A stretch of DNA of 64,000 nucleotides from an uncultured Alphaproteobacteria bacterium (GTDB lineage: Bacteria > Pseudomonadota > Alphaproteobacteria > RF32 > CAG-239): NCBI GenBank assembly GCA_902464275.1, contig CABQIK010000002.1:80485-144484 (forward strand). The letters run 5' to 3'. The first letter of the stretch is position 1, and each line of letters begins with the position of its first letter. Of the stretch, positions 10,291 through 59,352 are shown piece by piece. Below the pieces are notes generated by a model, which saw only the letters and a list, made by a program, of their open reading frames with translations, did no database searches and had not been told where the DNA came from. The translations under genes and the position numbers were made by a program.

Positions 10291-10301
10291 GAGAGGTTTA
10301 A

Positions 10302-13301: not shown

Positions 13302-13353
13302 TATTTTTTCAAAAGTAAACATTTTAAGAAAGTTTGTTTCATAGAGAAGTGAA

Positions 13354-14346
13354 ATGCCTAAAATTTCTGTAATTATGCCAGTATATAACACCAAATCTGA
13401 ATATTTTAAAGAAGCGATTCAGAGTATTTTATTGCAAACCTATAATAATTTTGAACTGATAATTGTTGATGACTGCTCAGATAGCTACATCAAAGACATT
13501 GTTTTACAATATAAAGACAATAGAATTTTTTATTATCGCACCGAACGAAATTCAGGAGCCGCAGCAGCAAGAAATTTGGCTATTTCTAAAGCTCGCGGCG
13601 AATTTTTGGCTTTTATGGATTCTGATGATGTCTCTTTGCCAAACAGATTTGAAGAACAGCTTAAGTATTTTCAACAAAATCCTCAAATTGGTTGTTTAGG
13701 TACAAACATTATTACAATAAGCGACACAATAAAAATGAAATTTCCAAAACATTTAAGGGGTACAGATATTGAGCAGTATTTGTTGTTTACCGGGTGTGCA
13801 TTTTGTCAATCAAGCGTTATGTTACGTAGAGAAATACTAGAAAAAAATAATATTAAGTACAATAGTCAATATGTTCCGGCTGAAGATTATGCATTGTGGC
13901 TTGACTTAGTCGGTAAAACAAAATTTGCCATTTTGGATAAGACTTTACTAAAATACCGTTATTATCCTGAAAACATTTCCAACAGACAAAAGTTCTTGCA
14001 AGAAAAGAAATGCGCTGAAGCTCAAATTGCGGCATTAGAAAAGTATTGCGAATTTAAACTTGACAATAAAGATTTATTGTTGTCTTTTTTCTATAAAAAA
14101 AGTTTACCGCTATCTGATTTGCAAGAATTAAATACTACCATAGATGAGTTAATTACAAAAATGAAAATGAATAACGTTTTTACACCTGCCGCTCTTAATA
14201 TTTTTAAGAGAAAATTTAAAAAACTATACTACCATACGCACAGTATAAAAGGGCAATGGCAACTCTTCAATTCACCAATTAACAAATTGCTGAATATTAA
14301 GTTGTCTTGCCGTTTGTTTTGTTTTATTACCAGAGGAATATTATAA
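13354..14346 (+). CDS. Family 2 glycosyltransferase
   Basis: [18 protein letters not shown] and MDSDD motifs. AT-rich. Confidence 0.85.
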
Positions 14347-15311
14347 TGAAAACAATTCTTGTAACCGGAGGGACCGGCTTTCTCGGGTCAAATCTTTGCA
14401 CTCGCCTGATTAATGAAGGCAATCGGGTGATTTGTGTAGATAATAACTACACAGGACGGATGAGCAATGTCAGCTCTATTCTCAATCATCCGAATTTTCG
14501 GTTTATTAAGCATGATGTTTGCAATCCTCTGGACGTTGATGACGAGAAGATTGACCAAATTTATAATATGGCTTGTCCGGCATCTCCTCCGGCTTATCAG
14601 GGCAGTTATTCCATCAAGACCACCAAGACCTGTGTTTTAGGCGCTATCAACATGTTGGAACTGGCTAAAAAACACCACGCCACCATTTTACAAACCTCAA
14701 CTTCTGAAGTTTATGGCGAGCCGTTGGTTCATCCGCAGGTAGAAAGCTATCGCGGCAATGTCAATCCTGATGGTATTCGCGCTTGTTATGATGAGGGCAA
14801 ACGCTGCGCCGAAAGTTTGTTCTTTGACTATTGGCGGCATGAGGGTGTGGATATTAAGGTTATTCGCATTTTTAATACTTACGGTCCCAATATGGATCCA
14901 AATGACGGACGCGTGGTGTCAAACTTTATCTGTCAGGCGCTTTCGGGGCAAGATATTACCATTTATGGCGATGGACACCAGACACGCTCATTTTGCTATG
15001 TTGACGATTTGATTGAAGCCATGATTCGGATGATGAACAGTCCGAAAGACTTTACCGGACCGGTAAACACCGGTAACCCCGGGGAATTTACAATTAAGGA
15101 GTTGGCGGAAATGGTTGTTGCTAAAATCGGCGGAAAATCTAAAGTTGTTTACAAGGATTTACCCTCAGACGACCCAACACAACGCCGTCCTGATATTACT
15201 TTGGCAAAAAACAAACTCGGCTGGGAACCCAAAATTAAACTCAGTGAAGGTTTAGACAGGACTATTGAATATTTCAAAACTCAAATTAATCTATTTAGGA
15301 AGGCTATGTAA
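14346..15311 (+). CDS. UDP-glucuronate decarboxylase (UDP-xylose synthase-type SDR)
   Basis: [16 protein letters not shown] Rossmann motif and YDEGKR catalytic motif. ATG 14346 overlaps the preceding stop (TAATG). Confidence 0.85.
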
Positions 15312-15312
15312 T

Positions 15313-16650
15313 ATGAAAGTAGGAATTATCGGAACAGGTTATGTTGGTTTACCCACCGGCGTTGGTTTGGCTGAACTTGGCAATCAGGTTGTATGTATTG
15401 ACCGCGAGCCGAAAAAAATAGAAGCTTTGCAAGCGGGTAAAATCACTTTGTATGAGGACGGGTTGGAGGACTTGTTCCACAAAAACGTCAAAGAAGGTCG
15501 TCTGCATTTTACAACTTCTATGCAGGAGGGCGTCTCTGATGCTGATTTAGTGATTATTGCAGTTGGCACACCGCCGCATCCGGTCACTAAAGAAGCGGAT
15601 ATGAAGTATATTCACGCTGCTGCAACCGAATTAGCGGAATATTTGACAGGATACACGGTTGTGGCTACCAAATCTACCGTTCCGGTCGGTACCGGCGATG
15701 TGGTTGAAGGGCTGATTGCCAAAAAGAATCCCAAAGCTGATTTTGACGTTGTTTCTTTGCCGGAATTTTTGCGGGAAGGTTTTGCCGTGCATGACTTCTT
15801 CCACCCTGATCGGATTGTCGTTGGCGCCAATACCGAAAAAGCCCGCAATGTTATTAAAGAGCTTTATAAGCCGTTTGAAGGCAAAACCAATATGCTGTTT
15901 GTTAAACGTCGGTCAAGCGAAACTATTAAATATGCTTCAAATGCTTTTTTAGCCATCAAAATCCATTATATTAATGAGATGGCCAATTTCTGCGAGAAAA
16001 CAGGGGCGGATATTACAGAAGTAGCCAAAGGTATGGGCTTGGACAGCCGTATCGGCAATCGTTTCTTGAACCCCGGTCCCGGCTATGGCGGAAGCTGTTT
16101 CCCGAAAGATACAATGGCCATGGCTTATATGGCACGCCAAAATGATGTTGATATGACCTTGATTAAAGCGGCAATTGACGGTAACACCAAACGCAAAAAA
16201 GACATGGCGGAAAGAATTCTTGAGGCGGTTAAAGGAATTGATAATCCGAAAATTGCCGTTCTAGGTCTGGCTTTCAAAGACGGAACCGATGACTGCCGCG
16301 AAAGTCCGGCAATGGAAATTGTCGGCAATCTGCTGGAAACCGGCGCGGATATTACCGCTTATGACCCTAAGGCTATGGAAACAGCCAAGCTCTTGGTCGG
16401 CGACAAGATTACATACGCCGCGGACATGTATGAGGCGCTCAAAGGAGCCGATGTGTTGGCGATTTTGACCGAATGGGGCGAGTTTAAAGAACTGGATTTA
16501 GCCAAAGCCGCCCAACTGATGAAACACAAAACCATTATTGACTGCCGTAATTTAATTGACACTGAACAAGCTGTGAAAAATGGCTTTAGGTATCAAGGAA
16601 TCGGGAAAAAACCGAAACAAAAAGATGATCGTTTGCAGGAGGCTGCATAA
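15313..16650 (+). CDS. ugd: UDP-glucose 6-dehydrogenase
   Basis: MKVGIIGTGYVGL NAD motif and GGSCFPKD catalytic Cys motif. RBS AGGAAGG. ATG 15313 is preferred over the ORF-track start at 15265. Confidence 0.9.
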   Translation: MKVGIIGTGYVGLPTGVGLAELGNQVVCIDREPKKIEALQAGKITLYEDGLEDLFHKNVKEGRLHFTTSMQEGVSDADLVIIAVGTPPHPVTKEADMKYIHAAATELAEYLTGYTVVATKSTVPVGTGDVVEGLIAKKNPKADFDVVSLPEFLREGFAVHDFFHPDRIVVGANTEKARNVIKELYKPFEGKTNMLFVKRRSSETIKYASNAFLAIKIHYINEMANFCEKTGADITEVAKGMGLDSRIGNRFLNPGPGYGGSCFPKDTMAMAYMARQNDVDMTLIKAAIDGNTKRKKDMAERILEAVKGIDNPKIAVLGLAFKDGTDDCRESPAMEIVGNLLETGADITAYDPKAMETAKLLVGDKITYAADMYEALKGADVLAILTEWGEFKELDLAKAAQLMKHKTIIDCRNLIDTEQAVKNGFRYQGIGKKPKQKDDRLQEAA

Positions 16651-16653
16651 AAA

Positions 16654-19600
16654 ATGAATTTTGACTATATTTGTAATCTTAATTTACCGACAGATGAGTA
16701 TGTTTCTGCTTTACAAGATTGGTTTATGAAACAAACTAAAAAGTATTTAAACATAGAAAACCCAACGACATTTAACGAAAAAATACAATGGTTAAAACTT
16801 TACGATTCAACACCATTAAAAGCTCAAACTACAGACAAATACCTCGTAAGAGATTGGGTTAAGAAAAAAATTGGTGAAGAATATCTTATTCCTTTACTAG
16901 GAGTATATAATAGTTTCGATGAGATCGATTTTGATAGTCTTCCAAATAAGTTTGTTATAAAAACAAATCATAGTAGCGGTTGGAATTGTGTCGTGACTAA
17001 CAAGAAGAATATAAATATAGATGAATTACGAGCCAAATTTAATTTATGGCTAAATACTAATTTTGCATTTATGTTTGGCTTTGAACTCCACTATAAAGAT
17101 ATAAAACCAAAAATTATTATTGAAAAATTTATCCAAAATAAATCCGGTATACTCTATGATTACAAATTTTGGTGTTTTAATGGAGAGCCTAAATATATTC
17201 AATTCCGAGATGATTGGAAAGCTGATTTAAAGATGGCTTTTTTTGATACCGAATGGAATAAACAAGAATTTCATTACGACCATCCGTTATATGAAAAAGA
17301 TTTACCAAAACCAGATAATTTATCTGAAATGTTAGACATTGCAAAGAAGTTATGTAAAGGATTTATGTTTGTTTGTGTTGATTTATATCGTTTAGATAAT
17401 GGCAAAATTTATTTTGGAGAAATGACCTATACTCGTTCTTCGGGAATAGCAAATTGGCAACCTGAGGAATGGAACAAAAAACTTGGAGAAATGATTAAAT
17501 TACCAAAAAACAAAGAGGAAATTATGAAAAAATGTAACTACAAAATTACTTATGAACCGAAGATTTCCGTCATAATACCTGTATATAATGTAGAAAAATA
17601 TCTGCCGAGATGCTTGGATTCGGTTATAAATCAAACATTGAAAGATATTGAAATTATCTGCATAAATGATGAATCTCCTGATAAGTGCAATCAAATTTTG
17701 ACAGAATATGCAAAACAAGATAAACGTATTATTGTTTTAAACCAAAAAAACAGCGGACAAGGAAGTGCGCGTAATCGTGGCTTAGAAGTCGCAAAAGGCA
17801 AGTATATCCAATTTTTGGATTCAGACGATTTTTATCAACCAAATTGCTGTGAAGAAATGTATAATATTATGGAAAAATACTCTGATGTGGATGTTGCTTG
17901 CTTTGATACTAATATTATTTACGAATCTTTCGAGGATAAAAAAGAAGAAGATGCATCGTATTTTAAAATGAATTTTTCAGGAATACAAAAAAACAAACCA
18001 AGTATGATTAGAAAATTAGATTGCAATTGTTGGAATAAAATTTTTCGAAAATCTTTTATTGACGAGTATGGTTTACGTTTTCCAGAGAAATTACATTTTG
18101 AAGATGTTGCTTTTTATTGGTTTTGGTTATCAAAATCTAAAAAAATTTATTTTTACAATAAAAAACTCACTAATTATATAAGAAGAAAAGGAAGTTTTCT
18201 AGGCGAAATATACACAAAGTCTAGTACACATATTTTCGAGATGTTTCACGTTTATGAGCTGATTTATACCGATCTTATAAAAAATAAAAAATTTGATAAT
18301 TACAAAGAAATGTTCTTACAACAGTATCTCAACAATTTCCGTTGGTTAAGGAATTGTTTTTCACATAATGTTACCCAAGAAAAGAGAAAATTAATTGACA
18401 AATGTTCAGTTTTTCTACAAACATGTGACATTAATCATTTGGAACTTTCATCTAGCGATAAAAAGTGTTTCGATAATATTATTAGCAAAAACTACTATTA
18501 TTTTGATGCTTATAATAATCATGAAATCGAAGAAGCTTTTCCTGTTTTTCCAAAAGATAGTATCAATATAGTCTTTTCTACTGATAATAATTATATTCCG
18601 TATTTGGCGGTAGCCATTTCTTCTATTATCGAAAATAGTTCGCCGGAGAATAACTATGATATAATTATTTTATATCAAGCTGTTTATGAATATCAAAAAC
18701 GGTTTATTTTATCAATGGTTGAAAAACATCAAAATATTTCTATACGTTTCTTTGATATGACACAATATATTAAAAATTTTGGTCTAGACAAGCTGTGTAC
18801 ACTCAACCATATCACACTATCAGCTTATTTCCGTTTATTTGTAGGGCAAATCTTTACAGAGTATAAGAAAATTTTATATTTAGATTGTGATTTGATAGTT
18901 ACAACTGATATAGCTCAATTATATCACTTAGATATCGGCAATTATCCGATTGCAGCTGCATTAGATACAACCATTAGCCATTCTCTTGTCGTTGGAGGAT
19001 TAAATACCAATGCATGGACAGCTTTTAGAAAATATATGTCAGAAACACTGAATTTTACAAGCCAAACAAAATATTTCAACTCAGGCGTCATGATTATTGA
19101 CATTGAAAAATTTAATGAAATGGATTTAGATTATTTAATCGATTTAGCTCAACGCAACAATAAGTTTTTCCATGATCAAAATGTTTTGAACGCTGCATTT
19201 GAAGGTAATTATTTCGAATTGTCACCAACGTGGAATTTTCAGTGGAATATTAAATTCCATAGTACGGATTATAAGTACGTTTTGTCACCAGATCTTCTTG
19301 CTTTTTATGAAGATCCTAGTATTCAGGCTAACATTGTTCACTACACCTCTCATGAAAAGCCATGGAAAAATCCCCACCATACATTTGCCAATATTTGGTG
19401 GGAGTATGCACGAAAAACGCCTTTTTATGAAATTTTCTTGAAAGATTTAAATTGCAACAAAATGGTGGCATCAGCATCAGACATAAATAAATCTCTTCTG
19501 TTGCAGATTTTATCATATAAAAAAGATAAACGGCGTTATTACCGGTATAAAATTCTTTCCAAAATAACCTTTGGTAATATGCGTAAATATTATAAACAAA

Positions 19601-19665
19601 AAAGAAAAGAACTAAAAGCATATCTTAAAAATATAGAAAGAATTATGAGAAATGAACAATCTTGA
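16654..19665 (+). CDS. Three-domain fusion: TupA-like ATP-grasp + GT2 + GT8 glycosyltransferase
   Basis: 1003 aa. N-terminal PTTFNEKIQWLKLYD (TupA-like ATP-grasp). Central ISVIIPVYN / INDESPD / LDSDD (GT2). C-terminal FSTDNNY / YLDCDLIV / NSGVMII / HYTSHEKPW (GT8). Confidence 0.8.
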   Translation: MNFDYICNLNLPTDEYVSALQDWFMKQTKKYLNIENPTTFNEKIQWLKLYDSTPLKAQTTDKYLVRDWVKKKIGEEYLIPLLGVYNSFDEIDFDSLPNKFVIKTNHSSGWNCVVTNKKNINIDELRAKFNLWLNTNFAFMFGFELHYKDIKPKIIIEKFIQNKSGILYDYKFWCFNGEPKYIQFRDDWKADLKMAFFDTEWNKQEFHYDHPLYEKDLPKPDNLSEMLDIAKKLCKGFMFVCVDLYRLDNGKIYFGEMTYTRSSGIANWQPEEWNKKLGEMIKLPKNKEEIMKKCNYKITYEPKISVIIPVYNVEKYLPRCLDSVINQTLKDIEIICINDESPDKCNQILTEYAKQDKRIIVLNQKNSGQGSARNRGLEVAKGKYIQFLDSDDFYQPNCCEEMYNIMEKYSDVDVACFDTNIIYESFEDKKEEDASYFKMNFSGIQKNKPSMIRKLDCNCWNKIFRKSFIDEYGLRFPEKLHFEDVAFYWFWLSKSKKIYFYNKKLTNYIRRKGSFLGEIYTKSSTHIFEMFHVYELIYTDLIKNKKFDNYKEMFLQQYLNNFRWLRNCFSHNVTQEKRKLIDKCSVFLQTCDINHLELSSSDKKCFDNIISKNYYYFDAYNNHEIEEAFPVFPKDSINIVFSTDNNYIPYLAVAISSIIENSSPENNYDIIILYQAVYEYQKRFILSMVEKHQNISIRFFDMTQYIKNFGLDKLCTLNHITLSAYFRLFVGQIFTEYKKILYLDCDLIVTTDIAQLYHLDIGNYPIAAALDTTISHSLVVGGLNTNAWTAFRKYMSETLNFTSQTKYFNSGVMIIDIEKFNEMDLDYLIDLAQRNNKFFHDQNVLNAAFEGNYFELSPTWNFQWNIKFHSTDYKYVLSPDLLAFYEDPSIQANIVHYTSHEKPWKNPHHTFANIWWEYARKTPFYEIFLKDLNCNKMVASASDINKSLLLQILSYKKDKRRYYRYKILSKITFGNMRKYYKQKRKELKAYLKNIERIMRNEQS

Positions 19666-19740: not shown

Positions 19741-19861
19741 TAGGGTGAAGTTTTTGCATTGTGCCAATACAACTTATGCACAGCGCTGACTCGTAAATAT
19801 TGCAAAAAAAAAACGCGAGCTAAAATCTTCTCAAACGTAACAATTTGAGGAGATTTTAGCT
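19741..19861 (+). promoter_or_regulatory. Pilin-cassette copy 2 (full length: extended upstream block, A10, -10-like hexamer, SD-burying inverted repeat)
   Basis: TAGGGT..TTTTGCATTGTGCCAATACAACTTATGCACAGCGCTGACTCGTAAATATTGCA(10)CGCGAGCTAAAATCTTCTCAAA-loop-TTTGAGGAGATTTTAGCT, then ATG. Confidence 0.8.
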
Positions 19862-20464
19862 ATGAAATCAGAAAACGGGCGGTCTATGGTGGAAATGCTT
19901 GGCGTTTTAGCAATTATTGGTGTCTTATCGGTCGGCGCGATTGCCGGATACAGCAAGGCGATGATGAAATATCGGCTCAATAAGCAAGCGGACCAACTCA
20001 GCTGGTTATTAAACGTATTATACCGCTATAAAGATATGTTCGGACACAGTAAAGGCTACTTTGTGCCTTACTTAAAAACACTTAATGAAATTCCGCAAGA
20101 GATGATTAAAGCTAATGACAGCCATATTTATGATACTTTCGGATTTTTATACTACATAAATACCGATAACTGCACTGATGAATTTTGCAGAGCATCTACT
20201 CTTCTTATTCAGTCGCCGACTAATTACAAAAATTTTGATGTATGCCATAATATTTTTGAAACAGCCAAAGCCTTTTCTACGCAGCTTTATTATTTTAGTG
20301 CTTGGTCCGGTGAAGCGGGCGGGTTAGATTACCTTTATGGTGATACTTATTGTTCGTCCGTCCGTAAATGTTTAAAAGATTTATCCCAAAATGATATGTA
20401 TGAAATTTGTAAAAACTGTGCCGAAAAAAGCTGTAATTTTTATTTTAAGTATGAAATTAAATAA
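19862..20464 (+). CDS. Prepilin-type (class III signal peptide) pilin-like protein, paralogue 1
   Basis: 200 aa. MKSENG-RSMVEMLGVLAIIGVLSVGAIAGY has Gly-1 and Glu+5 followed by a hydrophobic helix. Conserved VCHNIFETAKA core and C-terminal Cys pairs. Confidence 0.8.
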   Translation: MKSENGRSMVEMLGVLAIIGVLSVGAIAGYSKAMMKYRLNKQADQLSWLLNVLYRYKDMFGHSKGYFVPYLKTLNEIPQEMIKANDSHIYDTFGFLYYINTDNCTDEFCRASTLLIQSPTNYKNFDVCHNIFETAKAFSTQLYYFSAWSGEAGGLDYLYGDTYCSSVRKCLKDLSQNDMYEICKNCAEKSCNFYFKYEIK

Positions 20465-24544: not shown

Positions 24545-25237
24545 ATGACAGAAAAAAATACAGCAGAGATTAAAAAAACTGATATTAAAGCCAGCTGCTT
24601 AAAAACACTCAAGAAATTTACAGCCTTCTTAAAAGCGGATATTAAAGGCAGCGATTTCAAAACGCTCAAAGGTCTTATAACCGCTTTACGTTATTTGTTG
24701 TATATCGTGCTTTATGCTAAATTTTTGTATATGATGAATATTTTAACTCATGACACATTGGATACAGATTTTTATGAGGCGTGTGTTCCTGTCGGCTTTT
24801 TTAACATTTATTCGGCGGAACCTGTTACCTATTTTACCATTTTCAGCTTTTTAGAAAGCTACGCGCATGTAAATCTTGCCGGAGATATGCATTTATGCCT
24901 GCCAAGCGCGTATTATTTTGTGGTTTTGGCATGGTATTTTCTTTTGTTTTATACCGCATTTAAAATCTTGTCATTTTGCGTATTGTGGAAAAAATTACCT
25001 TGGAAGTATGTAATTTTAGAAATTTGCGGATTGATAATTTGTCTTTCATATCATGACTTTATGGTTTTAATTCAATATGGAAGATACGGCTTAATTCCGT
25101 TTTACCTGCTCGGGACTATAATTTGCACATTTTATATGTGGGTATTTTTACTGATAGGTTGGGCGATATTAAAATTCATCGGTTATATATATCATTTGCT
25201 TGTAGCACCGCTGATCAGCCGGCTTAGAAGTAAATAG
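24545..25237 (+). CDS. Polytopic membrane protein, tandem paralogue A
   Basis: 230 aa with ~5 hydrophobic segments. The C-terminal 44 aa are identical to paralogue B. Confidence 0.7.
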   Translation: MTEKNTAEIKKTDIKASCLKTLKKFTAFLKADIKGSDFKTLKGLITALRYLLYIVLYAKFLYMMNILTHDTLDTDFYEACVPVGFFNIYSAEPVTYFTIFSFLESYAHVNLAGDMHLCLPSAYYFVVLAWYFLLFYTAFKILSFCVLWKKLPWKYVILEICGLIICLSYHDFMVLIQYGRYGLIPFYLLGTIICTFYMWVFLLIGWAILKFIGYIYHLLVAPLISRLRSK

Positions 25238-25275: not shown

Positions 25276-25842
25276 ATGACAGAAGAAAACAAAGATAATA
25301 ACAGATTAAAAACGCGCCAAGAGTTTATAACCGTTTTACATTATTTATTGTATATCGTGCTTTACGGCGCTTTTGTGTATATAATATTAAGTTTAAATCA
25401 TGACGATTTTATAGATTGGCATGCGACGTGTACTTCTGTCGGCAGTTTTAACATTAATTCAGCAGACCCAATCACCGACTTTACCATTTTCAGTTTTTTA
25501 GATAACACTGCAAACTTAAATTTCGCAGGAGAGATACATTTATGCTTACCGAAAATGTTCGGATTTATGCTTTTAGTTTGGTATTTTTTTGTATTGTATA
25601 TGATATTTAAAACCTTATCATTTTCTATGTTGCCACCCCAAAAGCGGCGAATGTTTGACATTTTAGAAATTTGCGGATTGATAATTTGTCTTTCGTATCA
25701 TGATTTTATGGTTTTAATTCAATACGGAAGATACGGTTTAATTCCGTTTTATCTGCTCGGGACTATAATTTGCACTTTTTATATGTGGGTAATAATGCTG
25801 TTAAGGTGGATAATATTTAAATTGTTTGCCAAACACTATTGA
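25276..25842 (+). CDS. Polytopic membrane protein, tandem paralogue B
   Basis: 188 aa. Shares YLLYIVLY... and ILEICGLIICLSYHDFMVLIQYGRYGLIPFYLLGTIICTFYMWV with paralogue A. Confidence 0.7.
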   Translation: MTEENKDNNRLKTRQEFITVLHYLLYIVLYGAFVYIILSLNHDDFIDWHATCTSVGSFNINSADPITDFTIFSFLDNTANLNFAGEIHLCLPKMFGFMLLVWYFFVLYMIFKTLSFSMLPPQKRRMFDILEICGLIICLSYHDFMVLIQYGRYGLIPFYLLGTIICTFYMWVIMLLRWIIFKLFAKHY

Positions 25843-31260: not shown

Positions 31261-31380
31261 TAGGGTTTATTTTGCATTGTGCCAATACAACTTATGCACA
31301 GCGCTGACTCGTAAATATTGCAAAAAAAAAACGCGAGATAAAATCTTCTCAAAACTAACTTTTTGAGAGGATTTTAGCTC
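31261..31380 (+). promoter_or_regulatory. Pilin-cassette copy 3 (full length)
   Basis: Same blocks as copy 2. Inverted repeat GAGATAAAATCTTCTCAAAA / TTTTGAGAGGATTTTAGCTC abuts the ATG at 31381. Confidence 0.8.
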
Positions 31381-32016
31381 ATGTATACACAATCCGGAAG
31401 AAGTATGGTTGAGATGCTCGGAGTTCTGGCGATTATCGGGGTGCTGTCAGTTGGCGCTATTGCCGGTTACGGAAAAGCTATGTTCAAGTACAAACTTAAC
31501 AAACAAACCGAACAATTAAATCAGGTTATCGGTGCCATCGTGCGCTATAAAAGCAGTTTACTGCTTAATCCCAATCCGGCGGATGATACCAATCTAAGCG
31601 ACTTTCAATTAGTGTCATTACTTAAAAAGCTCGGTGAAATTCCAAAAGAGATGTATACATCCAGTGATGTATACATCAAAGATGCTTTCGGCACTCAATA
31701 TTATGTTTATAATCGTAACACTCATAAGAACATGGTTTTTTTACGAACTCGTAGCATGGATCGTAATGACAGCTCTTTTCAGATTTGTAAAAATTTATAC
31801 TTAATCGCCAAAGAATGGCACCAAGAATTACATTCTATACGTGTTGCAGCTTATAAAGGCGATGATTTTGACAGCCAAGGAACATATTGCGGCGATAACA
31901 CTCTAAATTCATATTGTTTTAAACGCATTAAAGATTTACGATTAACCGACCTTGACGATATTTGCCGAACCGCCGCTGAAGAGCAAGGCTCATATTCGGT
32001 TATGTTATATTTTTAA
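31381..32016 (+). CDS. Prepilin-type pilin-like protein, paralogue 2
   Basis: 211 aa. MYTQSG-RSMVEMLGVLAIIGVLSVGAIAGY, plus the ICKNLYLIAKE core and C-terminal Cys residues. Confidence 0.8.
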   Translation: MYTQSGRSMVEMLGVLAIIGVLSVGAIAGYGKAMFKYKLNKQTEQLNQVIGAIVRYKSSLLLNPNPADDTNLSDFQLVSLLKKLGEIPKEMYTSSDVYIKDAFGTQYYVYNRNTHKNMVFLRTRSMDRNDSSFQICKNLYLIAKEWHQELHSIRVAAYKGDDFDSQGTYCGDNTLNSYCFKRIKDLRLTDLDDICRTAAEEQGSYSVMLYF

Positions 32017-43560: not shown

Positions 43561-43775
43561 GGTTACACCCTAAATTTTATTGTATTTTAGGCGGTTATAG
43601 TATATGATGCTTAACAAAGCAAGCAATTTTTACACTTAAAATTTTATTTTTAAAAATATAAAAATATTTTTCGCTAAAATTTGCATTTTTTGACAAAAAA
43701 GCTATTGAAAATCAAAATATTTTATTGTATACTGCGAACAATCAGAAACTTTTTTACACACGGGAGTGCTTAATT

Positions 43776-46700
43776 ATGGCAAAGAACGCTAAAGTTAAAA
43801 TGGATTTGAATGAAGCTGTTACGATTTTGCAGGGTGAAACTATCGCCAAAGCAAAAGGCGCGGACGGCTATTCGGCGGCAGAAGTAAAAGAGGCATTAAA
43901 GATTGTTAAAGCGCAAGATCCGGACAATCAGGTTTTGTATCAGTATATGCTTATTACCGTGTTTCAACCGGTTAAAGCGCAAGATCCGGACAATCAGGTT
44001 TTGCATGTTTATAATGAACAGGCTAAAAATGCCCAAAATACCGCGGGCAAAACAAATGCCGAAACAACTTCTAAAACCGGTAAAAAAACCGGCGCCAAAA
44101 AAGCGGCTAAACCTGCTAAAAGCGCAAACAAAGCTCAGGTTTTGCGTTCTGATGCTTCCGACAATAAAAAACCGGATTTTAACGAGGCCGTCACCATTTT
44201 GCAAGGCGAGGCTATTGCCAGAGCCAAAGGCGCAGAAGGTTTTTCAAAGGCTGAAGTTGAAGAAGCTCTTAAAATTGTTAAGGAGCAAGACCCTGACAAT
44301 AAGGTATTAAACATTTACATGCAACAAGCAAAAAATGCCGAAAAAGCCGAGAGTATCCCTGTAAAAAATGAAAATTCCGCTGATAAAAAGGCTGAAAATA
44401 AAAAGGCTGAAAACAAGCTTGAAAACGTTTCTGCGCAAAATGCCGAAAATCGGCAGGTTTTGCGTCCGGTTCCTCCGGCAGAGTCCATGAGCTTAGACGA
44501 GGCGGTTGCCATTTTGCAAGGCGAGGCTATCGCGGCCTTAAACGGCGCCGACGGATTTTCGCAAAGCAAAATTCAGGAAGCCTTGAAAGTTGTGCAGGAT
44601 AAAGACCCGAATCATCCGGCTTTAAAAGCTTATCAGGAACAGCTTGCCAACTTTGAAAAAGCCAACAAGCTGCAATCAAACAATCCGGTAATTTACGCGC
44701 AAAACTCAGAAGACACTGACTTTACGCTCAGAGGCTACACTTTTGATAAGTTTACCGAAAGCTCTGAAAATGACGACATTCGCGAATATATTGGCAATAC
44801 GGAGCTTACTGACAGCGTCAGCGGCAAAGTTTTGGAAGCTCAGGAACGCAAAGATTATCTTAACCTGATTTTTGAAGGCGCTAAGTTAAAAACCGAAACC
44901 TCATTAATAGGTGATGAAAAGTACGCCAAATTAAGCAATGCCCAGAAAATTAAGACGATTAAAGCAGAGCTTAAAACTATTTTCTTTGCTGACTTTGCCC
45001 GCACTGCCATTGCGTCAGATTTAGAAAAGCCAACCACTTTGGAGCAACGTATCGGCTCTAAAGAATATAAAGATTATATTCTGCGTCAATCACAAAAAGC
45101 TTCGGGCATTATGCAAAAAATTGTCAGCGGCGGTCAAAAGATTAAAATTAAAACCGACGCCATTTTGGCTTCATGCGCCGATACCGCGGCTCAGACCGAA
45201 CAATATATTAAAGGCCTGAGATTAAAAGCTCAGCAAGCTGTTGCGCAAGCTTCGCAATCGGCTAAAAACGGAGCGCAAAAAGCTTCAGACAATATACGTA
45301 ATGATTTTAACAAAATAGCCGACCGCTTGCAGAAACATAAAAACAATTTTGAGCAGCTGGCTAACAATGTTTCAAAAAATCGTTATCAAATTTTCAAGAA
45401 TATTAAAGGAAGTTTCAGTGATAACAAAATTAAATTGTTTGGCAATGTTGCCGCTAACGCCGCATTCGGTTATGTGACGGCGGCTGCCGCTTCCGGCGCG
45501 GTTGCCGGCGCAGCTGCTCCGGTATTGGTTCCGGCCGTTGCCGCTTATGCGGTATATCATGCCGCCGGTTCATTGGTATATCCGGTTGTGGCGGAAATTC
45601 GCAAAATCAACCGTCAAAAACGAGAAGCCGGTGAAGCGACCTTGCCGTTTATGCAAGCCTTAAAGCAAGCTTGGAAAAATAAAACCGAGTCTCGTAAAAA
45701 CAGACGCACCTATATTGTCAGCGTCTTAATCAACACCGCTGTTGCCGCCGGTGGTTTTGCATGGTTGAAAGACGGTTTGGAAGCCGCCGATGCCGCCGCA
45801 GCGTTGACTGACGGAGTTAAAGACGGCTTGAACGTTACTTTAGCATCCAGCATTGCCGAAACTCGTCATGCTATCAGTATGGGACGCGCAGGCGCCGCCA
45901 CCATGGCGCAGTTAGCAGATGCAGGTGTTGCTTACGGCGTTTCAGTTGCCGACCCGCAAAACTTAGAGAAAAAAGCCGAGGCTAAACAAACCGCGATTGC
46001 CGCTTTGATCGGTATGGGCTTAAACGCCGCCGCTCAGGGCTTGAGTTCGGCATTGCAAAATATTAACACCGCTAACGGCGAAATATCAGATGTGCTCTCA
46101 TCAGATAATGGCACCCCTGCTCCGGTTAACAATCCGGTTAATGACGATGGAATTGTAAATCCGGTAACCGGCGCTCCGGTTAACAATCCGGAAGCAAATG
46201 ATGTTGCCCCCGCTCCGAGTGCAGGCGATAATGTTACTGATATTGCCGACACCACTAATGACGCCTCTGTTGCTCCTAAACCAAACTTTGTTAAAGGTTT
46301 GTGGAATAAGTGGTTTGGCGGCAGAAGTAATGATGAAGCCCCTTCAACCCCGATTGTCGGCGACGGCAGAAACCCTGACGGAAGTTGGCAGGTTTCAGAC
46401 GGAAACGGCGATGCCGTTAATATTGTGGATAATGGCGGCAACGCAGGCGATGTTGATGTTGCAACCAATGGCGGAAATGTTCCTGCCGGTTTATTCCCGA
46501 GAGAATATAATCAGGATATGGGCATCAGCCAAAGAGAATATAACACTTTGGTTAATACCACTGAAGGCACGCTTAAAGCCGCAACCGGCGAAGAAGTTAC
46601 TTTGGACAGAGCTTACAGCAATCTCAGCGGCTCTATGGATCAATTTAAAGGCAGAACCGAAGAAGAAATTATGTACAAATATAACCGCTTGTATGCCTTT

Positions 46701-47459
46701 ATGCGTAAGGCTTACAGCGTTGGGGACGGAACCTTGCGCGAAACCCCGTCAGGCAGCGAGTATTTAACTTCTCGTTTCAGCAACATTAATATTCCTGGCA
46801 TGAATGAAGATAAAATGTCGCAGTTGGTTGATTTTGCTAAGGATAACACCTATGCAAACAAAGCTGAACTTAAAGAAGGACTAAATAAACTCTTCCCTGA
46901 AGGGTTAAGCAACAAAGATATGACAGCATTGATTACAACTATTCACAGCAACCAACGCTTTAACCAATACCAGTCTGAAATGGAAGCCTTAACCAAACTG
47001 CTTGGTTGCGGTGAAAAAATCAGCAATGAAGATGCTTTGGCTATCAACAAAATGTTAGATAATACCGACGCTTTGCTCGCAACCGGTAAAGCTCACACTC
47101 AGTTGACCGGTTTGAGCCTGGCTAAAGATTGCAACGATGATGACGGAGAATGGATACGCGTTGCTGTTCAGCCGAAAGAAGTTCCGCTTCCGGAAACTCC
47201 TGAACTTGGCGATGCCGAATTACCTGATGACGAGATTGTAATTGCCGCTGCTCCGCAAATGCAGTTGCAACCGGATGAAGGTTTGCAGGTTGAACCGATG
47301 GCTGCTCCAACTGAACAACCGCAAGACGGCGTTGAAAAAATTGTCGGTGATAAAATGTCACAAGTCAGAGGCGAAAACGAACCCGATTATCGCAAGCCGG
47401 TATCGGATAGAAAAGCCGCCCGCTTATTGAAGAGAATTAACAGCGGTTCTCGTGAATAA
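43776..47459 (+). CDS. Large (1227 aa) repeat-containing membrane-associated protein, unknown function
   Basis: ATG 43776 with RBS GGGAG is preferred over 43725. Three ~45-aa modules (NEAVTILQGExIA.AKGA.G(Y/F)S.AEV.EALKIVK.QDPDN.VL). Ala-rich hydrophobic segments mid-protein. Acidic, Pro-rich C-terminus. Confidence 0.75.
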   Translation: MAKNAKVKMDLNEAVTILQGETIAKAKGADGYSAAEVKEALKIVKAQDPDNQVLYQYMLITVFQPVKAQDPDNQVLHVYNEQAKNAQNTAGKTNAETTSKTGKKTGAKKAAKPAKSANKAQVLRSDASDNKKPDFNEAVTILQGEAIARAKGAEGFSKAEVEEALKIVKEQDPDNKVLNIYMQQAKNAEKAESIPVKNENSADKKAENKKAENKLENVSAQNAENRQVLRPVPPAESMSLDEAVAILQGEAIAALNGADGFSQSKIQEALKVVQDKDPNHPALKAYQEQLANFEKANKLQSNNPVIYAQNSEDTDFTLRGYTFDKFTESSENDDIREYIGNTELTDSVSGKVLEAQERKDYLNLIFEGAKLKTETSLIGDEKYAKLSNAQKIKTIKAELKTIFFADFARTAIASDLEKPTTLEQRIGSKEYKDYILRQSQKASGIMQKIVSGGQKIKIKTDAILASCADTAAQTEQYIKGLRLKAQQAVAQASQSAKNGAQKASDNIRNDFNKIADRLQKHKNNFEQLANNVSKNRYQIFKNIKGSFSDNKIKLFGNVAANAAFGYVTAAAASGAVAGAAAPVLVPAVAAYAVYHAAGSLVYPVVAEIRKINRQKREAGEATLPFMQALKQAWKNKTESRKNRRTYIVSVLINTAVAAGGFAWLKDGLEAADAAAALTDGVKDGLNVTLASSIAETRHAISMGRAGAATMAQLADAGVAYGVSVADPQNLEKKAEAKQTAIAALIGMGLNAAAQGLSSALQNINTANGEISDVLSSDNGTPAPVNNPVNDDGIVNPVTGAPVNNPEANDVAPAPSAGDNVTDIADTTNDASVAPKPNFVKGLWNKWFGGRSNDEAPSTPIVGDGRNPDGSWQVSDGNGDAVNIVDNGGNAGDVDVATNGGNVPAGLFPREYNQDMGISQREYNTLVNTTEGTLKAATGEEVTLDRAYSNLSGSMDQFKGRTEEEIMYKYNRLYAFMRKAYSVGDGTLRETPSGSEYLTSRFSNINIPGMNEDKMSQLVDFAKDNTYANKAELKEGLNKLFPEGLSNKDMTALITTIHSNQRFNQYQSEMEALTKLLGCGEKISNEDALAINKMLDNTDALLATGKAHTQLTGLSLAKDCNDDDGEWIRVAVQPKEVPLPETPELGDAELPDDEIVIAAAPQMQLQPDEGLQVEPMAAPTEQPQDGVEKIVGDKMSQVRGENEPDYRKPVSDRKAARLLKRINSGSRE
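43905..44003 (+). repeat. Perfect 33-bp direct repeat (43905-43937 and 43971-44003) separated by 33 nt, inside the CDS
   Basis: GTTAAAGCGCAAGATCCGGACAATCAGGTTTTG occurs twice. It encodes VKAQDPDNQVL twice, with YQYMLITVFQP in between. Confidence 0.9.
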
Positions 47460-47595: not shown

Positions 47596-48411
47596 TTATT
47601 TAGTGCCGAGATTAATAAATGGCACGGTGTTGCCCATCATGTATTGAGGTAATTCACCGTTCCACTTCAGCACAGCCTCATATTCTGTGAGGCCTTTGTT
47701 TTTGGCCAAAGCCTGAGATTTAATCTCCATGGCTTCAGCCTCAGCCTTGGCGGCAATAACCGTTTGCTGCGCTTCCTCTTGAATCCTTTTTGTATTGTTG
47801 ACGGCCTCCTGAGCTTTTTGCTCGGCAATGACCTTGTCTTCAATCGCCTTTTCAAAATTATCGCTATAGTCTATATTAATAAACATAAACGAGATATTTT
47901 GAATGAATTCAGAATTCATTTTTTCACGCAAGCATGCGATTACCGCATCGGTAGCAACATCACGGTTGCTGACCAACTCTTGGGCCGGCCATTTACCAAT
48001 GACATCTCTGAGTGCCGCATCCAAAATCGGTGTGACGATCTTAGACTCATAATCCATGCCGATTGTCTCGTACAAAACGTTGACTTTGGTAGGATTGAGC
48101 TCATAGGTGAACGCAAACTTCATTTCTGCAGTCTGCATATCACTGGTATAAGTTGCTCCCGGCGCCTCAAACTTTTTGGTTCTGACGTCCATTTCCACCA
48201 TACGAGAGATAAACGGCCACTTAAAGCCGATACCGTTCGTATAAGAACGTGGAGCCACCTTGCCGAGTGTTACCAGAACACCGCGGTGTCCAGGCGAGAC
48301 CACGTAAATGGAACTGGCAATCAGCATCAACATGAACAGAGATATAACTCCGATGATGGACCACTTCACGATAGTCTTGGTTCTCTTCTGCTGCTCTTCG
48401 TAATAACCCAT
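47596..48411 (-). CDS. SPFH/Band 7 (prohibitin-like) membrane protein
   Basis: N-terminal TM helix, VVSPGHRGVLVTLGKV, and a C-terminal coiled-coil with AEQKAQEA. Confidence 0.88.
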   Translation of the reverse strand: MGYYEEQQKRTKTIVKWSIIGVISLFMLMLIASSIYVVSPGHRGVLVTLGKVAPRSYTNGIGFKWPFISRMVEMDVRTKKFEAPGATYTSDMQTAEMKFAFTYELNPTKVNVLYETIGMDYESKIVTPILDAALRDVIGKWPAQELVSNRDVATDAVIACLREKMNSEFIQNISFMFINIDYSDNFEKAIEDKVIAEQKAQEAVNNTKRIQEEAQQTVIAAKAEAEAMEIKSQALAKNKGLTEYEAVLKWNGELPQYMMGNTVPFINLGTK

Positions 48412-48711
48412 AATTTAATATTTTTAATTAATGCTTCAGCACAACCGGTTAAACATACGGTTTGATTTAATGTTGATTGTTCTTTTTTCATAAAACAAAA
48501 TTTTTGATTCTAATCTGATCCCTAAAGTACGCAACTTTATACCTGAAACAGGCGGGCGGTCTCGCAGAAGACTCTTTATCAAAAATTTCTGGTATCAGCG
48601 CGTTGGTAAACCAAACACGGTAATACTTTCATTATAAATAAGTTACAACAACAGTTAAATAAACTTTGTATATAGTTTTACAAAAATCACAATACTTTTT
48701 TGTCTAATATT

Positions 48712-48810
48712 AAATACAACTTATACACAGCACGGACTCGTAAATATTGCAAAAAAAAAAGCGCGAGCTAAAATCTTCTCAAAACTAACTTTTTGAGAGG
48801 ATTTTAGCTC
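48712..48810 (+). promoter_or_regulatory. Pilin-cassette copy 4
   Basis: AAATACAACTTATACACAGCACGGACTCGTAAATATTGCA(10)GCGCGAGCTAAAAT... The 20-bp inverted repeat 48765-48784 / 48791-48810 has one G-U position and abuts the ATG. Confidence 0.8.
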
Positions 48811-49581
48811 ATGTATACATATTTTAGCCGCTTTTTACACAACACTCTGTCACGCACCGGTATAAAAGAGGTGTTCACCTCTTCTTTGTCACTCTCCGAC
48901 TTGATCGGAGAGTCCAGGTCAAACCAAGTAGCTAATTTGTCCCACCTGGATTATCGGGTCAAGCCCGATAATGACAACATAGAGAATGCTGGACGTAGTA
49001 TGGTAGAAATGCTTGGGGTGTTGGCGATTATCGGGGTGCTGTCAGTCGGCGCTATCAGCGGTTACTCTAAGGCAATGTTCAAGTATAAATTAAATAAACA
49101 ATCAGAGCAGTTAAGCACCATCATTAACGCCTCAATTCGTTATTATAATGATTTGCGGCTAATAAGTTCTGAAGGTGAATACAATTTAATCCCGATACTT
49201 GATAAACTCGGTGAAATTCCAAAAGAAATGATAGTACAAAATAATAATTGGATTCTTAAAGATGTGTTTGACACCACCATAAACATTTATTATCACAATA
49301 CAAACTATCTGGGCATAACTGATTTGATTGATAAAAGCAGTAGAAGTATGGAAATTTGCCGCAATATTATTATCACCGCAAAAGAAAATCACGCCGATAT
49401 TTACCAAATATTTTTCCGCAATGATTATAGCGATAAACAAGAATATTCACGCCACATAAGCGGGGACAAAATATGTGGTCCGGCAAATGTTTGTTTGAAA
49501 GATATGAGCATAAAACAAATTGATGACGCTTGCAGTTTTTGCGCCTCTGATAAATGTTGGCTTTACATTCAGCTCATGTAA
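48811..49581 (+). CDS. Prepilin-type pilin-like protein, paralogue 3, with 57-codon insertion in the leader peptide
   Basis: 256 aa. MYT + 57 inserted codons + GRSMVEMLGVLAIIGVLSVGAISGY. The downstream part is a normal family member (EICRNIIITAKEN, C-terminal Cys residues). May be impaired in processing. Confidence 0.6.
   Translation: MYTYFSRFLHNTLSRTGIKEVFTSSLSLSDLIGESRSNQVANLSHLDYRVKPDNDNIENAGRSMVEMLGVLAIIGVLSVGAISGYSKAMFKYKLNKQSEQLSTIINASIRYYNDLRLISSEGEYNLIPILDKLGEIPKEMIVQNNNWILKDVFDTTINIYYHNTNYLGITDLIDKSSRSMEICRNIIITAKENHADIYQIFFRNDYSDKQEYSRHISGDKICGPANVCLKDMSIKQIDDACSFCASDKCWLYIQLM
48820..48990 (+). mobile_element. 171-nt in-frame, hairpin-rich insertion (REP/REPIN- or RPE-like small element candidate)
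   Basis: It replaces the 6 nt CAATCC of paralogue 2. Three hairpins at 48866-48883, 48891-48913 and 48951-48971; the second and third have mutually complementary loops (CTTGA / TCAAG). Confidence 0.4.
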
Positions 49582-57640: not shown

Positions 57641-57680
57641 AAAAATCCTAACTATTTACGAGTAAAATGGTTTTAATCAG

Positions 57681-57770
57681 AATACAACTTATGCACAACA
57701 TAGACTCGTAAATATTGCAAAAAAAAAACGGCGTCTATAATGTTTTATTATAGCACTTTAGAGAGGATTT
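57681..57770 (+). promoter_or_regulatory. Pilin-cassette copy 5 (divergent 3' part)
   Basis: AATACAACTTATGCACAACATAGACTCGTAAATATTGCA(10)CGGCGTCTATAATGTTTTATTATAG. A TATAAT at the same offset lies inside a different 7-bp hairpin. SD GAGAGGA. Confidence 0.75.
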
Positions 57771-57773
57771 TTG

Positions 57774-58493
57774 ATGATAAATACACAATCAGGAAGAAGT
57801 ATGGTGGAGATGCTCGGCGTTTTGGCGATTATCGGGGTCTTATCCGTGGGGGCGATTGCCGGATACAGCAAGGCAATGATGAAATACAAACTCAATAAAC
57901 ATGCTGAGCAGATGAATCAGATTATGGCGGCAATCAGTCGTCACACCGGTTCTTTTAAGAATATCCAATACGAAAGTTTTGTTACAGGCGCATTTACTAA
58001 AATGGGAGAATTTCCAAGTGAAATGTCTCAAGACAATAATACTGTAAGTGTTTATGATATTTTTAAAAATCGTATATCTGTTGTATATTCTCCAAAAACT
58101 TCAAGCTCCAACCATAGTGCTCAGAATGAAATCAGGTTAGATTATTATTTATCCACTGACAGCAATACCGCTGTTGAGCTGTGTCGTTCATTGTTTGTTG
58201 CCGCCAAAGAGCAAAGCGGCGAGTTACACCGGATATTTACTACGACTAGCAGTAGTCCAAACGACCAAAACCAATATTACGGCGATAAGTATTGCACTAA
58301 CAACTGCATTAAAAATCTTAGTATGAACACTATCGGCAATATCTGCGCGAATGCTCAAGGTAAATCAAGTAATATCCGAGATAATGACATGGCCGGCGAA
58401 ATGTCATTATCCACCTTCGGATTAAGTATCGGTGGCTCTGATGATACCAGCAACAATATTGATAGCATAAACTTTGTGTGGAAAGCTGACTAA
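57774..58493 (+). CDS. Prepilin-type pilin-like protein, paralogue 4
   Basis: M(I)NTQSG-RSMVEMLGVLAIIGVLSVGAIAGY with the ELCRSLFVAAKEQ core. ATG 57774 (6 nt after GAGAGGA) is preferred over TTG 57771. Confidence 0.8.
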   Translation: MINTQSGRSMVEMLGVLAIIGVLSVGAIAGYSKAMMKYKLNKHAEQMNQIMAAISRHTGSFKNIQYESFVTGAFTKMGEFPSEMSQDNNTVSVYDIFKNRISVVYSPKTSSSNHSAQNEIRLDYYLSTDSNTAVELCRSLFVAAKEQSGELHRIFTTTSSSPNDQNQYYGDKYCTNNCIKNLSMNTIGNICANAQGKSSNIRDNDMAGEMSLSTFGLSIGGSDDTSNNIDSINFVWKAD

Positions 58494-58559: not shown

Positions 58560-58594
58560 GCAATATTTTTTAAATTTGCAACATTTTTGGGTAT

Positions 58595-58689
58595 CCACAA
58601 CTTATACACACCCCGGACTCGTAAATATTGCAAAAAAAAAACGCGAGCTAAAATCTTTTCAAAACAACTAATTTGAGGAGATTTTTATT
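58595..58689 (+). promoter_or_regulatory. Pilin-cassette copy 6
   Basis: CCACAACTTATACACACCCCGGACTCGTAAATATTGCA(10)CGCGAGCTAAAATCTTTTCAAA...TTTGAGGAGATTTTTA, then ATG at 58690. Confidence 0.8.
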
Positions 58690-59352
58690 ATGAAATCAGA
58701 AAACGGCAGAAGTATGGTGGAAATGCTTGGCGTGCTCGCTATTATCGGCGTTTTATCTGTCGGGGCTATCAGCGGATACTCCAAGGCCATGTTTAAGTAT
58801 AAGCTCAACAAACAGGCGGAAAGTTTCAGCATGCTGTTAAATGAGGCGATAATGCTTTTGCCTGATTTAGAGCGTCATTACGGTAAAAACGTTACAACCC
58901 GCAATAACCTGAATGACTTTTTCTATAAAGCCAACCTGTTGCCGGACGGTATGACTTATAATGCGGCGGATAACCGTATTTATGATATATTTAAGAACAA
59001 AATTCTGTTGCATTATACTATGTCTATTCATGGCGACGGCAGCACATCAACGGACTATTATATGGCGATTGAAACGAATCACGCGGGCGGCACAATCAGC
59101 GGGCAAAATAACGAAATTTGCCGCAATATATTTCTTGTCGCCAAAGAAAACGCCCAAAATATTTTAAGTATAGAAATGCGCTCCACCAGAACAGACGGAT
59201 ATTCCACAGTAATATTACGCGGCGGACGTCATCCAACCTCAAACACTTTAAGCAAAGCCTCTATAAAGCAAATTAATGACACGTGCTCTTCATGCAATGC
59301 GGAAAAGGGTTGCGAAATCTTTTTAGTTATAAATGAAGCGCCCAACCCGTAA
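58690..59352 (+). CDS. Prepilin-type pilin-like protein, paralogue 5
   Basis: 220 aa. MKSENG-RSMVEMLGVLAIIGVLSVGAISGY, the EICRNIFLVAKEN core, and C-terminal CSSCNAEKGC. Confidence 0.8.
   Translation: MKSENGRSMVEMLGVLAIIGVLSVGAISGYSKAMFKYKLNKQAESFSMLLNEAIMLLPDLERHYGKNVTTRNNLNDFFYKANLLPDGMTYNAADNRIYDIFKNKILLHYTMSIHGDGSTSTDYYMAIETNHAGGTISGQNNEICRNIFLVAKENAQNILSIEMRSTRTDGYSTVILRGGRHPTSNTLSKASIKQINDTCSSCNAEKGCEIFLVINEAPNP

Follow-up and report, generated by a model that had tools for sequence, protein, structure and literature searches.

The stretch of DNA analyzed here (64,000 nt, hereafter the window; contig CABQIK010000002.1 of assembly GCA_902464275.1, positions 80,485 to 144,484) comes from an uncultured alphaproteobacterium and bears five paralogous pilin-like genes, with starts at 19862, 31381, 48811, about 57771 and 58690. 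We focus on the gene at 48811 (open reading frame, ORF, 48811-49581, plus strand, 256 aa) and on an element that interrupts its 5' end in frame. Residues 61-82 of the gene product, a Gly followed by RSMVEMLGVLAIIGVLSVGAI, recur at the four other genes in the window, where chance predicts no recurrence. In an alignment with these four paralogues, conservation extends up to ATGTATACA and resumes from the Gly codon onward; between these points 171 nt in the 48811 gene stand against 6 nt in the others, and this net gain of 165 nt bears out the in-frame, stop-free insert claimed in a preliminary description of this DNA. The leader ending at the Gly is 61 aa long in the 48811 product and 6-7 aa long in the other four. 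The lengths given in the preliminary description were about 62 aa against 6-8 aa. The insert contains no stop codon in the frame of the gene and 4, 4, 4, 1 and 4 stops in the other five frames; a stop-free frame arises by chance in 4.8% of mononucleotide shuffles of the insert and in 17% of random 171-nt window frames. Its G+C content is 45%, versus 39% in the window, and a second copy was found nowhere within the window, which is the only part of this genome examined.

The insert consists of a 5' module, a palindromic core and a short 3' linker (Table 1). The three hairpins reported in the preliminary description are exact in the sequence, and two of them, hairpins 2 and 3, are the arms of the 95-nt core, which reads in order TTGTC, ACTCTCCGA-CTTGA-TCGGAGAGT, TCCAGG, a 24-nt spacer, CCTGGA, ATTATCGGG-TCAAG-CCCGATAAT and GACAA. 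The outer stem TTGTC/GACAA and three hairpins, namely the two arms and the middle stem TCCAGG/CCTGGA that encloses the spacer, are predicted to form a four-way junction of -41 to -44 kcal/mol (z about -6.6) on either strand, and because the core is palindromic, turning it around alters neither the structure nor the two loop sequences. The fold of the whole leader reaches -57 kcal/mol as RNA (z = -4.0 against shuffled controls) and z = -6.0 as DNA. [quoted passage not shown] The 5' module carries a truncated arm-like CTGTCAC...CCGG plus hairpin 1; it varies between copies and is also part of the repeat unit in an intergenic array of a related genome (locus L088, described below). Hairpins 2 and 3 and the two long-range stems are kept across copies, whereas hairpin 1 is specific to a subtype and is not kept, which refines the earlier picture of three hairpins. 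The 3' linker likewise differs between copies (SLCAG, SICTG and others elsewhere). The left hairpin contains a GATC site. Rfam searches at gathering thresholds, which covered the window and 12 loci from other taxa, gave no match on the element, and permissive E-values on 48600-49100 yielded only chance matches to microRNA-like hairpins.

More than 7,600 database proteins resemble the 48811 product. Among the 120 best homologues, 89 have a leader of the type ...SLSDLIGESRSNQVANLSHLDYRVKPDND (hereafter orientation A), 4 have another form and 14 have short leaders, and the mature domains of these 120 are only about 50% identical. We scanned one genome per species with the pattern TCCGACTTGATCGG-N30-60-GTCAAGCC and obtained at least 118 stretches, which were the source of the copies from related metagenome-assembled genomes (MAGs). 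Four related low-G+C alphaproteobacterial MAGs contain at least 8-14 copies each, and almost all of these lie in leaders of the pilin-like family. Metagenome contigs, scanned independently in a second round, yielded 8 loci, of which 7 are gene-borne and 1 is in a non-pilin context. When the 57-aa peptide encoded by the insert was compared with 1.84 billion representative proteins, 21 matches were found, all of them N-terminal (residues 4-57 or nearby); they are members of the pilin-like family or truncated or antisense calls, and no other protein family is among them. The coding copies are confined to one pilin-like gene family.

Two further observations concern the leaders of this family. Other, unrelated long-leader types of 44-62 aa also occur in it (L074:2590-2720, L018:2397-2535, P0010, P0022, P0025 and P0119), two of which have a small hairpin, TGTAC-N8-GTACA, in common; short structured inserts may find a general landing site in the leader. 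At L133:2201-2971, a pilin-like gene has its 5' cassette replaced, and its ORF starts with a TTG that is the first codon of the element core; this gene may be a promoterless or silent copy.

At the same leader position the core is found in both orientations, and about half of the copies are reversed: among the matches listed, 21 are in orientation A and 15 in orientation B, which encodes ...SYSGLTRISRWNKFATWFDLDTPIKSECD. All 21 A copies use a single frame and so do all 15 B copies, and 35 of the 36 copies are stop-free. The checks proposed in the preliminary description thus come out in its favor: among the matches listed, the element is multicopy in related genomes, and its other copies are in frame within genes. 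Extra half-units (...SLKPDND) lengthen the insert by multiples of three bases and extend leaders to as much as 86-87 aa. It is also evident that the two orientations differ in their stems. In every B copy this stem reads ATATTCGGG/CCCGAATAT or CCATCGGG/CCCGATGG, so that its two strands are both altered, and the A-type TTATCGGG was never seen in B. A flip of the window copy puts a TAA in the B frame, exactly at the place where B copies have ATATTCGGG/CCCGAATAT instead of TTATCGGG/CCCGATAA; since the A-type stem gives a stop in B, a simple flip of the window copy would truncate the protein. The element is kept translatable: each orientation uses a single frame, and the avoidance of stops goes along with compensating changes in the stems.

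The occurrence of both core orientations at one leader position, together with the inversion of the spacer independently of the arms in four loci (L036, L058, L086 and L088), might be attributed to a programmed inversion switch, in which a recombinase would flip the core or the spacer at high frequency and give rise to phase-variable leaders. We regard such a switch as improbable. The orientations are distinct sequence subtypes, with an A-type stem that would give a stop in B; moreover, no recombinase gene lies next to the element, both orientations were never observed at one and the same locus, and the leader would be removed anyway.

The copies also show constraint on pairing. In 36 gut-type MAG copies, 98% of cells are paired, as compared with 30-39% in slid controls, and seven pairs have changes on both sides (covariation score 0.164 versus 0.067 in shuffles, reached by 0 of 500). 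In a set of 113 unique copies drawn from many taxa, each of the four Watson-Crick pair types is represented at several stem positions. Nucleotide diversity at codon positions 1, 2 and 3 of the element is 0.16, 0.10 and 0.10 in orientation A and 0.12, 0.15 and 0.15 in orientation B; the neighboring helix sequence, with its invariant amino acids, has 0.15, 0.07 and 0.53. Third-position diversity is thus five times lower in the element (0.10-0.15) than in the adjacent helix sequence (0.53). Because third-position diversity in the element equals that at the first and second positions, the constraint is on nucleotides and not on the peptide. Linked changes in the peptide track stem pairing as well: L...E goes with H...V, and Y...N goes with H...G or I...Y. 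The element is kept as a foldable nucleic-acid structure, with compensatory stem changes and no codon periodicity.

These results bear on the possibility that the long leader is an ancestral functional propeptide, old and with a role of its own, from which the short leaders arose by deletion. The preliminary description had reckoned that a unique segment with homologous long leaders in orthologues would speak for an ancestral extension. We found that the segment is multicopy in related genomes and that homologous long leaders are indeed common; they are highly conserved in at least 93 of the 120 nearest homologues, where mature domains are only about half identical, and this favors a propeptide. 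On the other hand, a propeptide is hard to reconcile with the lack of codon-position periodicity, with amino-acid changes that follow stem pairing, with two orientations that encode two unrelated peptides and with the existence of noncoding copies; the region is also predicted to be disordered and matches no protein family. This possibility is therefore already strongly disfavored, and we give it very little credence. Since long leaders are common, the window copy may have come by recombination between paralogues rather than by fresh transposition.

Copies outside genes are also found. In a relative of 93% identity (L088), a tandem intergenic array lies directly after an intrinsic terminator and is built of about 2.5 copies of a composite unit with a period of 199 nt. 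The copies in this array are 2 nt shorter and have stops in the coding frame; the array is not ORF-compatible and is unattached to a pilin-like gene. Among the matches listed, related MAGs have 36 gene-borne copies versus this one intergenic array. The alphaproteobacterial MAG locus L105 has an intergenic copy with a nearly identical spacer. Elsewhere, the same architecture, GTCAT-hairpin(CTTGA)-ATCC...spacer...GGAT-hairpin(TCAAG)-ATGAC, is present in Brevundimonas, Xanthobacter (in tandem), Robiginitomaculum, Micavibrio, Paracaedibacteraceae, Nitrospirota, Thermodesulfovibrio and other taxa. Among the low-G+C genomes of this set the copies are apparently mostly intergenic or at gene ends; ORF context is informative in low-G+C genomes only, long spurious ORFs being common in high-G+C ones. 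In Xanthobacter tagetidis, arrays of 2-5 high-G+C copies are spaced 150-350 nt apart (L021:5400-6610, L051:6828-7264 and L030:5316-5753). The core sequences gave only chance primer matches in full-text papers. We thus have a repeat family that spans Alphaproteobacteria, Nitrospirota and others, for which a limited literature search found no published description and Rfam holds no model. The existence of extragenic copies and the wide distribution of the architecture agree with the earlier claim that the repeat resembles a REPIN, that is, a doublet of repetitive extragenic palindromic (REP) sequences.

The locus itself was compared among assemblies. The exact 256-aa protein is encoded on 9 contigs from several separately accessioned assemblies, and the region is 100% identical over 1.2-1.3 kb across assemblies of different samples, with contig names of SPAdes (NODE) and MEGAHIT (k119) type. 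The junctions, for which the preliminary description had allowed a misassembly, are therefore reproduced in several separately accessioned assemblies. An assembly artefact or a chimera at a repeat would be in keeping with the contigs of several assemblies that break at or inside cassettes and elements, but such an explanation is barely credible given the agreement between separately accessioned assemblies of different samples; the element is not a misassembly.

The gene lies directly upstream of uvrC, and three allele states were seen at this locus. The first is a 201-aa allele with a 6-aa leader (MNIQSG) in genomes whose uvrC is 94.7% identical; the second is a 234-aa allele in the syntenic GCA_963594125.1 (93%), which is without the left hairpin and has an inverted spacer and an extra half-unit; in the third, the element is retained in variants of the same gene at 96-99% identity. 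Close relatives thus show an empty or restructured site at the same locus. Furthermore, a different gene of another genome (L007) bears an element 1 base off the window copy, the 3' linker aside, and the flanks of these two genes differ at synonymous sites. A search of JGI metagenomes for an empty-site allele with the gene's own synonymous signature gave 0 matches and is uninformative for an organism known mainly from ENA assemblies. The possibility that P0030 is an element-carrying orthologue of the paralogue at 31381 was rejected (69% identity and different flanking genes).

Several observations on the assemblies accompany these results. Many CALETM and JAJWCP contigs end inside the element, and L002 and L003 both begin 334 nt upstream of the gene. 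The cassettes and palindromic elements repeatedly break metagenome contigs; assemblies are fragmented as a result, and ORF calls such as P0121 and P0126 come out truncated or antisense. GCA_963594125.1 (CAVBCV01; L008, L025, L036 and others) is labeled as a "Lachnospiraceae bacterium", yet it is syntenic with the window at about 93%; this label is probably a taxonomic error, other related MAGs being labeled Alphaproteobacteria. Homology upstream of the uvrC-adjacent pilin-like gene ends at the cassette (L004 versus window 47596-48811), where the upstream neighbor is a Band-7 gene in the window and gpsA in L004; L008 is without the Band-7 gene. Rearrangement breakpoints therefore coincide with cassettes.

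From these data, it seems rather probable that the 171-nt segment is a unit of a REPIN- or MITE-like composite palindromic repeat that is tolerated in a dispensable leader. Such a unit would consist of two REP-like hairpins with the complementary loops CTTGA and TCAAG, inverted around a spacer of about 25 nt, together with short terminal inverted repeats and an extra 5' module. In uncultured low-G+C alphaproteobacteria the repeat would have become established in the leader-coding part of a pilin-like family that has expanded greatly, where extra residues should be harmless, as the leader would be cytoplasmic, has no order by prediction and lies upstream of the Gly(-1) after which a prepilin peptidase is predicted to cut. 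Its spread and loss among paralogues may have been mediated mainly by homologous recombination between the 5' cassette and the N-terminal helix sequence, as suggested by the single-site placement in one family, the conserved flanks and the near-identical element in the L007 gene. Recombination between the element's own inverted arms could flip the element or the spacer alone, and any transposition would need a trans-acting enzyme. For the protein, the outcome would be a leader of 61 aa in place of 6-7 aa and an unchanged mature protein. The reading in the preliminary description of a REP-doublet-like element in a removable leader, comparable with Rickettsia palindromic elements (RPEs), is thus supported by the multicopy, in-frame, junction and empty-site evidence.

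Several results weigh against a tolerated mobile repeat. REPINs have a cognate single-copy REP-associated tyrosine transposase (RAYT), an IS200-like Y1 transposase that is usually flanked by REPs. No RAYT or other transposase was detected by Pfam in 20 window ORFs, and no match was found at any locus in a tblastn search with an IS200 TnpA query; both are weak tests. No target-site duplication is visible at the junctions. Nearly all copies are at the same place in one gene family, which is more in keeping with spread by duplication and recombination than with active transposition. Conservation falls off sharply at the 3' edge of the element, and this, together with the repeated compensatory changes, could fit host selection for the structure equally well. 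Moreover, only 64 kb of the element's own genome, with one copy, could be considered, and both the pilin identity and the predicted leader cleavage depend on a motif match below threshold.

The most serious alternative is that the element has been exapted as a cis-acting structure, a four-way junction under host selection for which the open frame is a side condition. At the mRNA level, it could act in translation initiation or elongation, or in the stability or processing of pilin-like transcripts; at the DNA level, it could be a recombination or protein-binding site that coordinates or diversifies a large surface-protein family. Exaptation would explain the nucleotide-level constraint with its abrupt boundary at the 3' edge, the repeated compensatory changes in gene-borne copies, the identity of structure and loops in either orientation, the very stable fold in the first 180 nt of the coding region and the occupation of the same site in dozens of paralogues and several species. 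It is not easily reconciled with the absence of the element from four of the five window paralogues and from the orthologue in close relatives, with the free variation in module number, spacer orientation and 5' module, or with the lack of an Rfam family match; homologous elements elsewhere are also scattered and mostly intergenic or at gene ends, as selfish repeats are. We therefore hold exaptation to be possible and on balance doubtful. It is with similar reserve that we suggest, as the most far-reaching outcome, an exapted module usable in either orientation in dozens of pilin-like genes per genome that would serve a large and fast-diversifying surface-protein family as an mRNA-level regulator or a DNA-level recombination module and would at the same time be the first characterized member of an undescribed REPIN-like family spanning Alphaproteobacteria and Nitrospirota.

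The tolerated-repeat interpretation can be compared with known systems. REPINs are defined as two imperfect-palindrome hairpins that are inverted around a short spacer (PMC3337134). The element shares with that description the inverted hairpin pair around a spacer, a fold-back of about 100 nt, the multicopy state and a structure kept across copies. It differs from REPINs in that almost all copies here are inside a coding leader, whereas REPINs are predominantly extragenic, and in that the two hairpins have different stems and the copies bear extra modules and half-units. RPEs are palindromic repeats of about 100-150 bp that occur in frame in alphaproteobacterial genes and are translated in the host protein (PMC10969869). 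Like these, the element is a palindromic repeat translated in frame inside a host ORF. However, RPEs occur in many unrelated genes, whereas the coding copies here are confined to the leader of one family; both orientations are used here, and the site is the presumably removed part rather than the mature fold. There is also no sequence relationship, the leader peptide having no match in NCBIfam. NCBIfam includes RPE models.

Enterobacterial repetitive intergenic consensus (ERIC) sequences, Correia elements and other MITEs are co-transcribed, fold in the mRNA and have occasional intragenic in-frame copies (PMC10969869). The short terminal inverted repeats, stable fold-back, co-transcription with the host gene and in-frame copies of the element resemble them; the highly nonrandom placement of copies does not, and no target-site duplication, IHF site or, with no search aimed at one, parent insertion sequence was recognized here. 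Palindromic amphipathic repeat coding elements (PARCELs) are translatable from either strand (PMC2996958), and the element is likewise a palindromic repeat open to translation on either strand. PARCELs are tandem, intragenic and build the protein itself, whereas we observe a single leader unit with nucleic-acid constraint.

In-frame palindromic repeats are best known from Rickettsia, and the same in-frame principle is now seen in uncultured, apparently gut-associated alphaproteobacteria. What is unusual here is the restriction of coding placement to a signal leader, the use of both orientations and the joint constraint on hairpin pairing and on an open frame, which make the element a natural system for the coexistence of selfish or structured DNA with coding sequence. 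Prepilin-type leaders could far exceed the described 6-26 aa, if they are processed at all; under exaptation, prepilin-type leaders of 60-87 aa would be a by-product, two to three times as long as the longest described. A practical effect is that the cassettes and elements break metagenome assemblies and inflate ORF calls or create antisense ones.

Class III signal peptides have Gly(-1), Glu(+5) and about 21 hydrophobic residues, with known leaders of 6-26 aa, and the prepilin leader remains in the cytoplasm, cleavage taking place on that side (PMC4471445). The 48811 product shares the Gly(-1), the Glu(+5) and a hydrophobic helix about 21 residues long, and the Gly and following RSMVEMLGVLAIIGVLSVGAI are invariant in the five paralogues. 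It differs from class III signal peptides in leader length, which is 61 aa here and up to 86-87 aa in related genes, and the Arg at position +1 of the predicted mature protein and profile scores below threshold (N_methyl 13.9-15.6 bits, cutoff 21.2; IV_pilin_GFxxxE 10-15.1 bits, cutoff 16.3) leave the family assignment loose. In the AlphaFold (AF2) model, leader residues 1-62 are disordered (pLDDT <50), residues 63-111 form a helix and the globular domain is confident; a Foldseek search of this model against PDB gave no significant match and did not confirm a pilin fold. No prepilin peptidase or pilus machinery was found among the 20 window ORFs tested, and the 61-aa leader peptide matched no family in NCBIfam and Pfam at E up to 10. 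The label "pilin-like", which we take from sequence features, is therefore reasonable but unproven. The paralogues of this family in the window (Table 1) have an invariant N-terminal helix and globular domains that are about 40-50% identical and confidently modeled, with no PDB match.

Table 1. Features of the 48811 gene, its element and its paralogues, with coordinates in the window
Feature	Coordinates	Strand	Basis or remark
Conserved 5' cassette	48712..48810	+	repeat families D3-D5, alignment, promoter scan, hairpin fold (-30.6 kcal/mol, z -7.4)
Promoter-like TTGCAA-16-TAAAAT	48747-48774		promoter scan
Inverted repeat of cassette, GAGCTAAAATCTTCTCAAAA / TTTTGAGAGGATTTTAGCTC	48766-48810		also 31337-31380, 19818-19861, 58646-58689
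Start codon and first three codons, ATGTATACA (MYT)	48811..48819	+	alignment; identical to paralogue 31381
Insert of 171 nt, 57 codons, stop-free	48820..48990	+	stands for 6 nt of short-leader paralogues
5' module of insert, encodes YFSRFLHNTLSRTGIKEVFTSS	48820..48884	+	
Hairpin 1, AAGAGGTG-tt-CACCTCTT	48866-48883		
Core palindrome, four-way junction fold	48885..48979	.	self inverted match, folds, covariation
Outer stem TTGTC/GACAA	48886-48890 with 48973-48977		
Left arm, hairpin 2, ACTCTCCGA-cttga-TCGGAGAGT	48891-48913		
Middle stem TCCAGG/CCTGGA	48914-48919 with 48944-48949		encloses spacer
Spacer	48920-48943		
Right arm (right hairpin)	48950-48972		
Hairpin 3, TTATCGGG-tcaag-CCCGATAA	48951-48971		
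3' linker to Gly codon, end of ...NIENA	48980..48990	+	
Predicted class-III-signal-like motif, Gly(-1) at 48991-48993, then RSMVE(+5)MLGVLAIIGVLSVGAI	48991..49053	+	amino acids invariant in paralogues
Putative mature protein, long N-terminal helix and globular alpha/beta domain	48994..49581	+	
Cassette copies, about 110 nt	13243-13349, 19765-19871, 31283-31389, 48712-48819, 57680-57776, 58593-58699		
Paralogous genes	19862-20464, 31381-32016, 48811-49581, 57771-58493, 58690-59352		

The cassette precedes the five pilin-like genes and also a GT2 glycosyltransferase gene at 13354, in a sugar-nucleotide operon (13354-19665), which suggests that the surface-protein family and a glycosylation cluster are co-regulated from a common cassette. 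Every paralogue cassette has the near-perfect inverted repeat of 17-20 bp, which at 48766-48810 has 20 bp and covers the -10 box, the Shine-Dalgarno sequence and the stretch up to the start codon (RNA fold z = -6 to -7.4 among paralogues). A transcription start just after TAAAAT would leave most of the 5' arm untranscribed, which would favor a DNA operator over an RNA hairpin. The possibility of a sigma-54 promoter in the cassette was rejected, the GG-to-GC spacing being wrong and the GG not conserved. A scan for tRNA and tmRNA genes found none.

Elsewhere in the window, a defense-island-like cluster (740-2389, 2447-3304 and 8084-11964) contains AAA_15/AAA_21 ATPases, a D12-class (Dam-like) adenine methyltransferase, an RloB-like protein and an AbiEi/AbiEii toxin-antitoxin pair. 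Two tandem paralogous genes at 24545-25237 and 25276-25842 (repeat families D6, D7 and D9; 647-650 nt apart, 74-88% identical) belong to no Pfam family. The ORF at 43725-47459 encodes a 1,244-aa protein with no Pfam match on record, in which three N-terminal motif repeats of the type ...EAVTILQGEAIA...DPDN... (D8 and D11) can be recognized.

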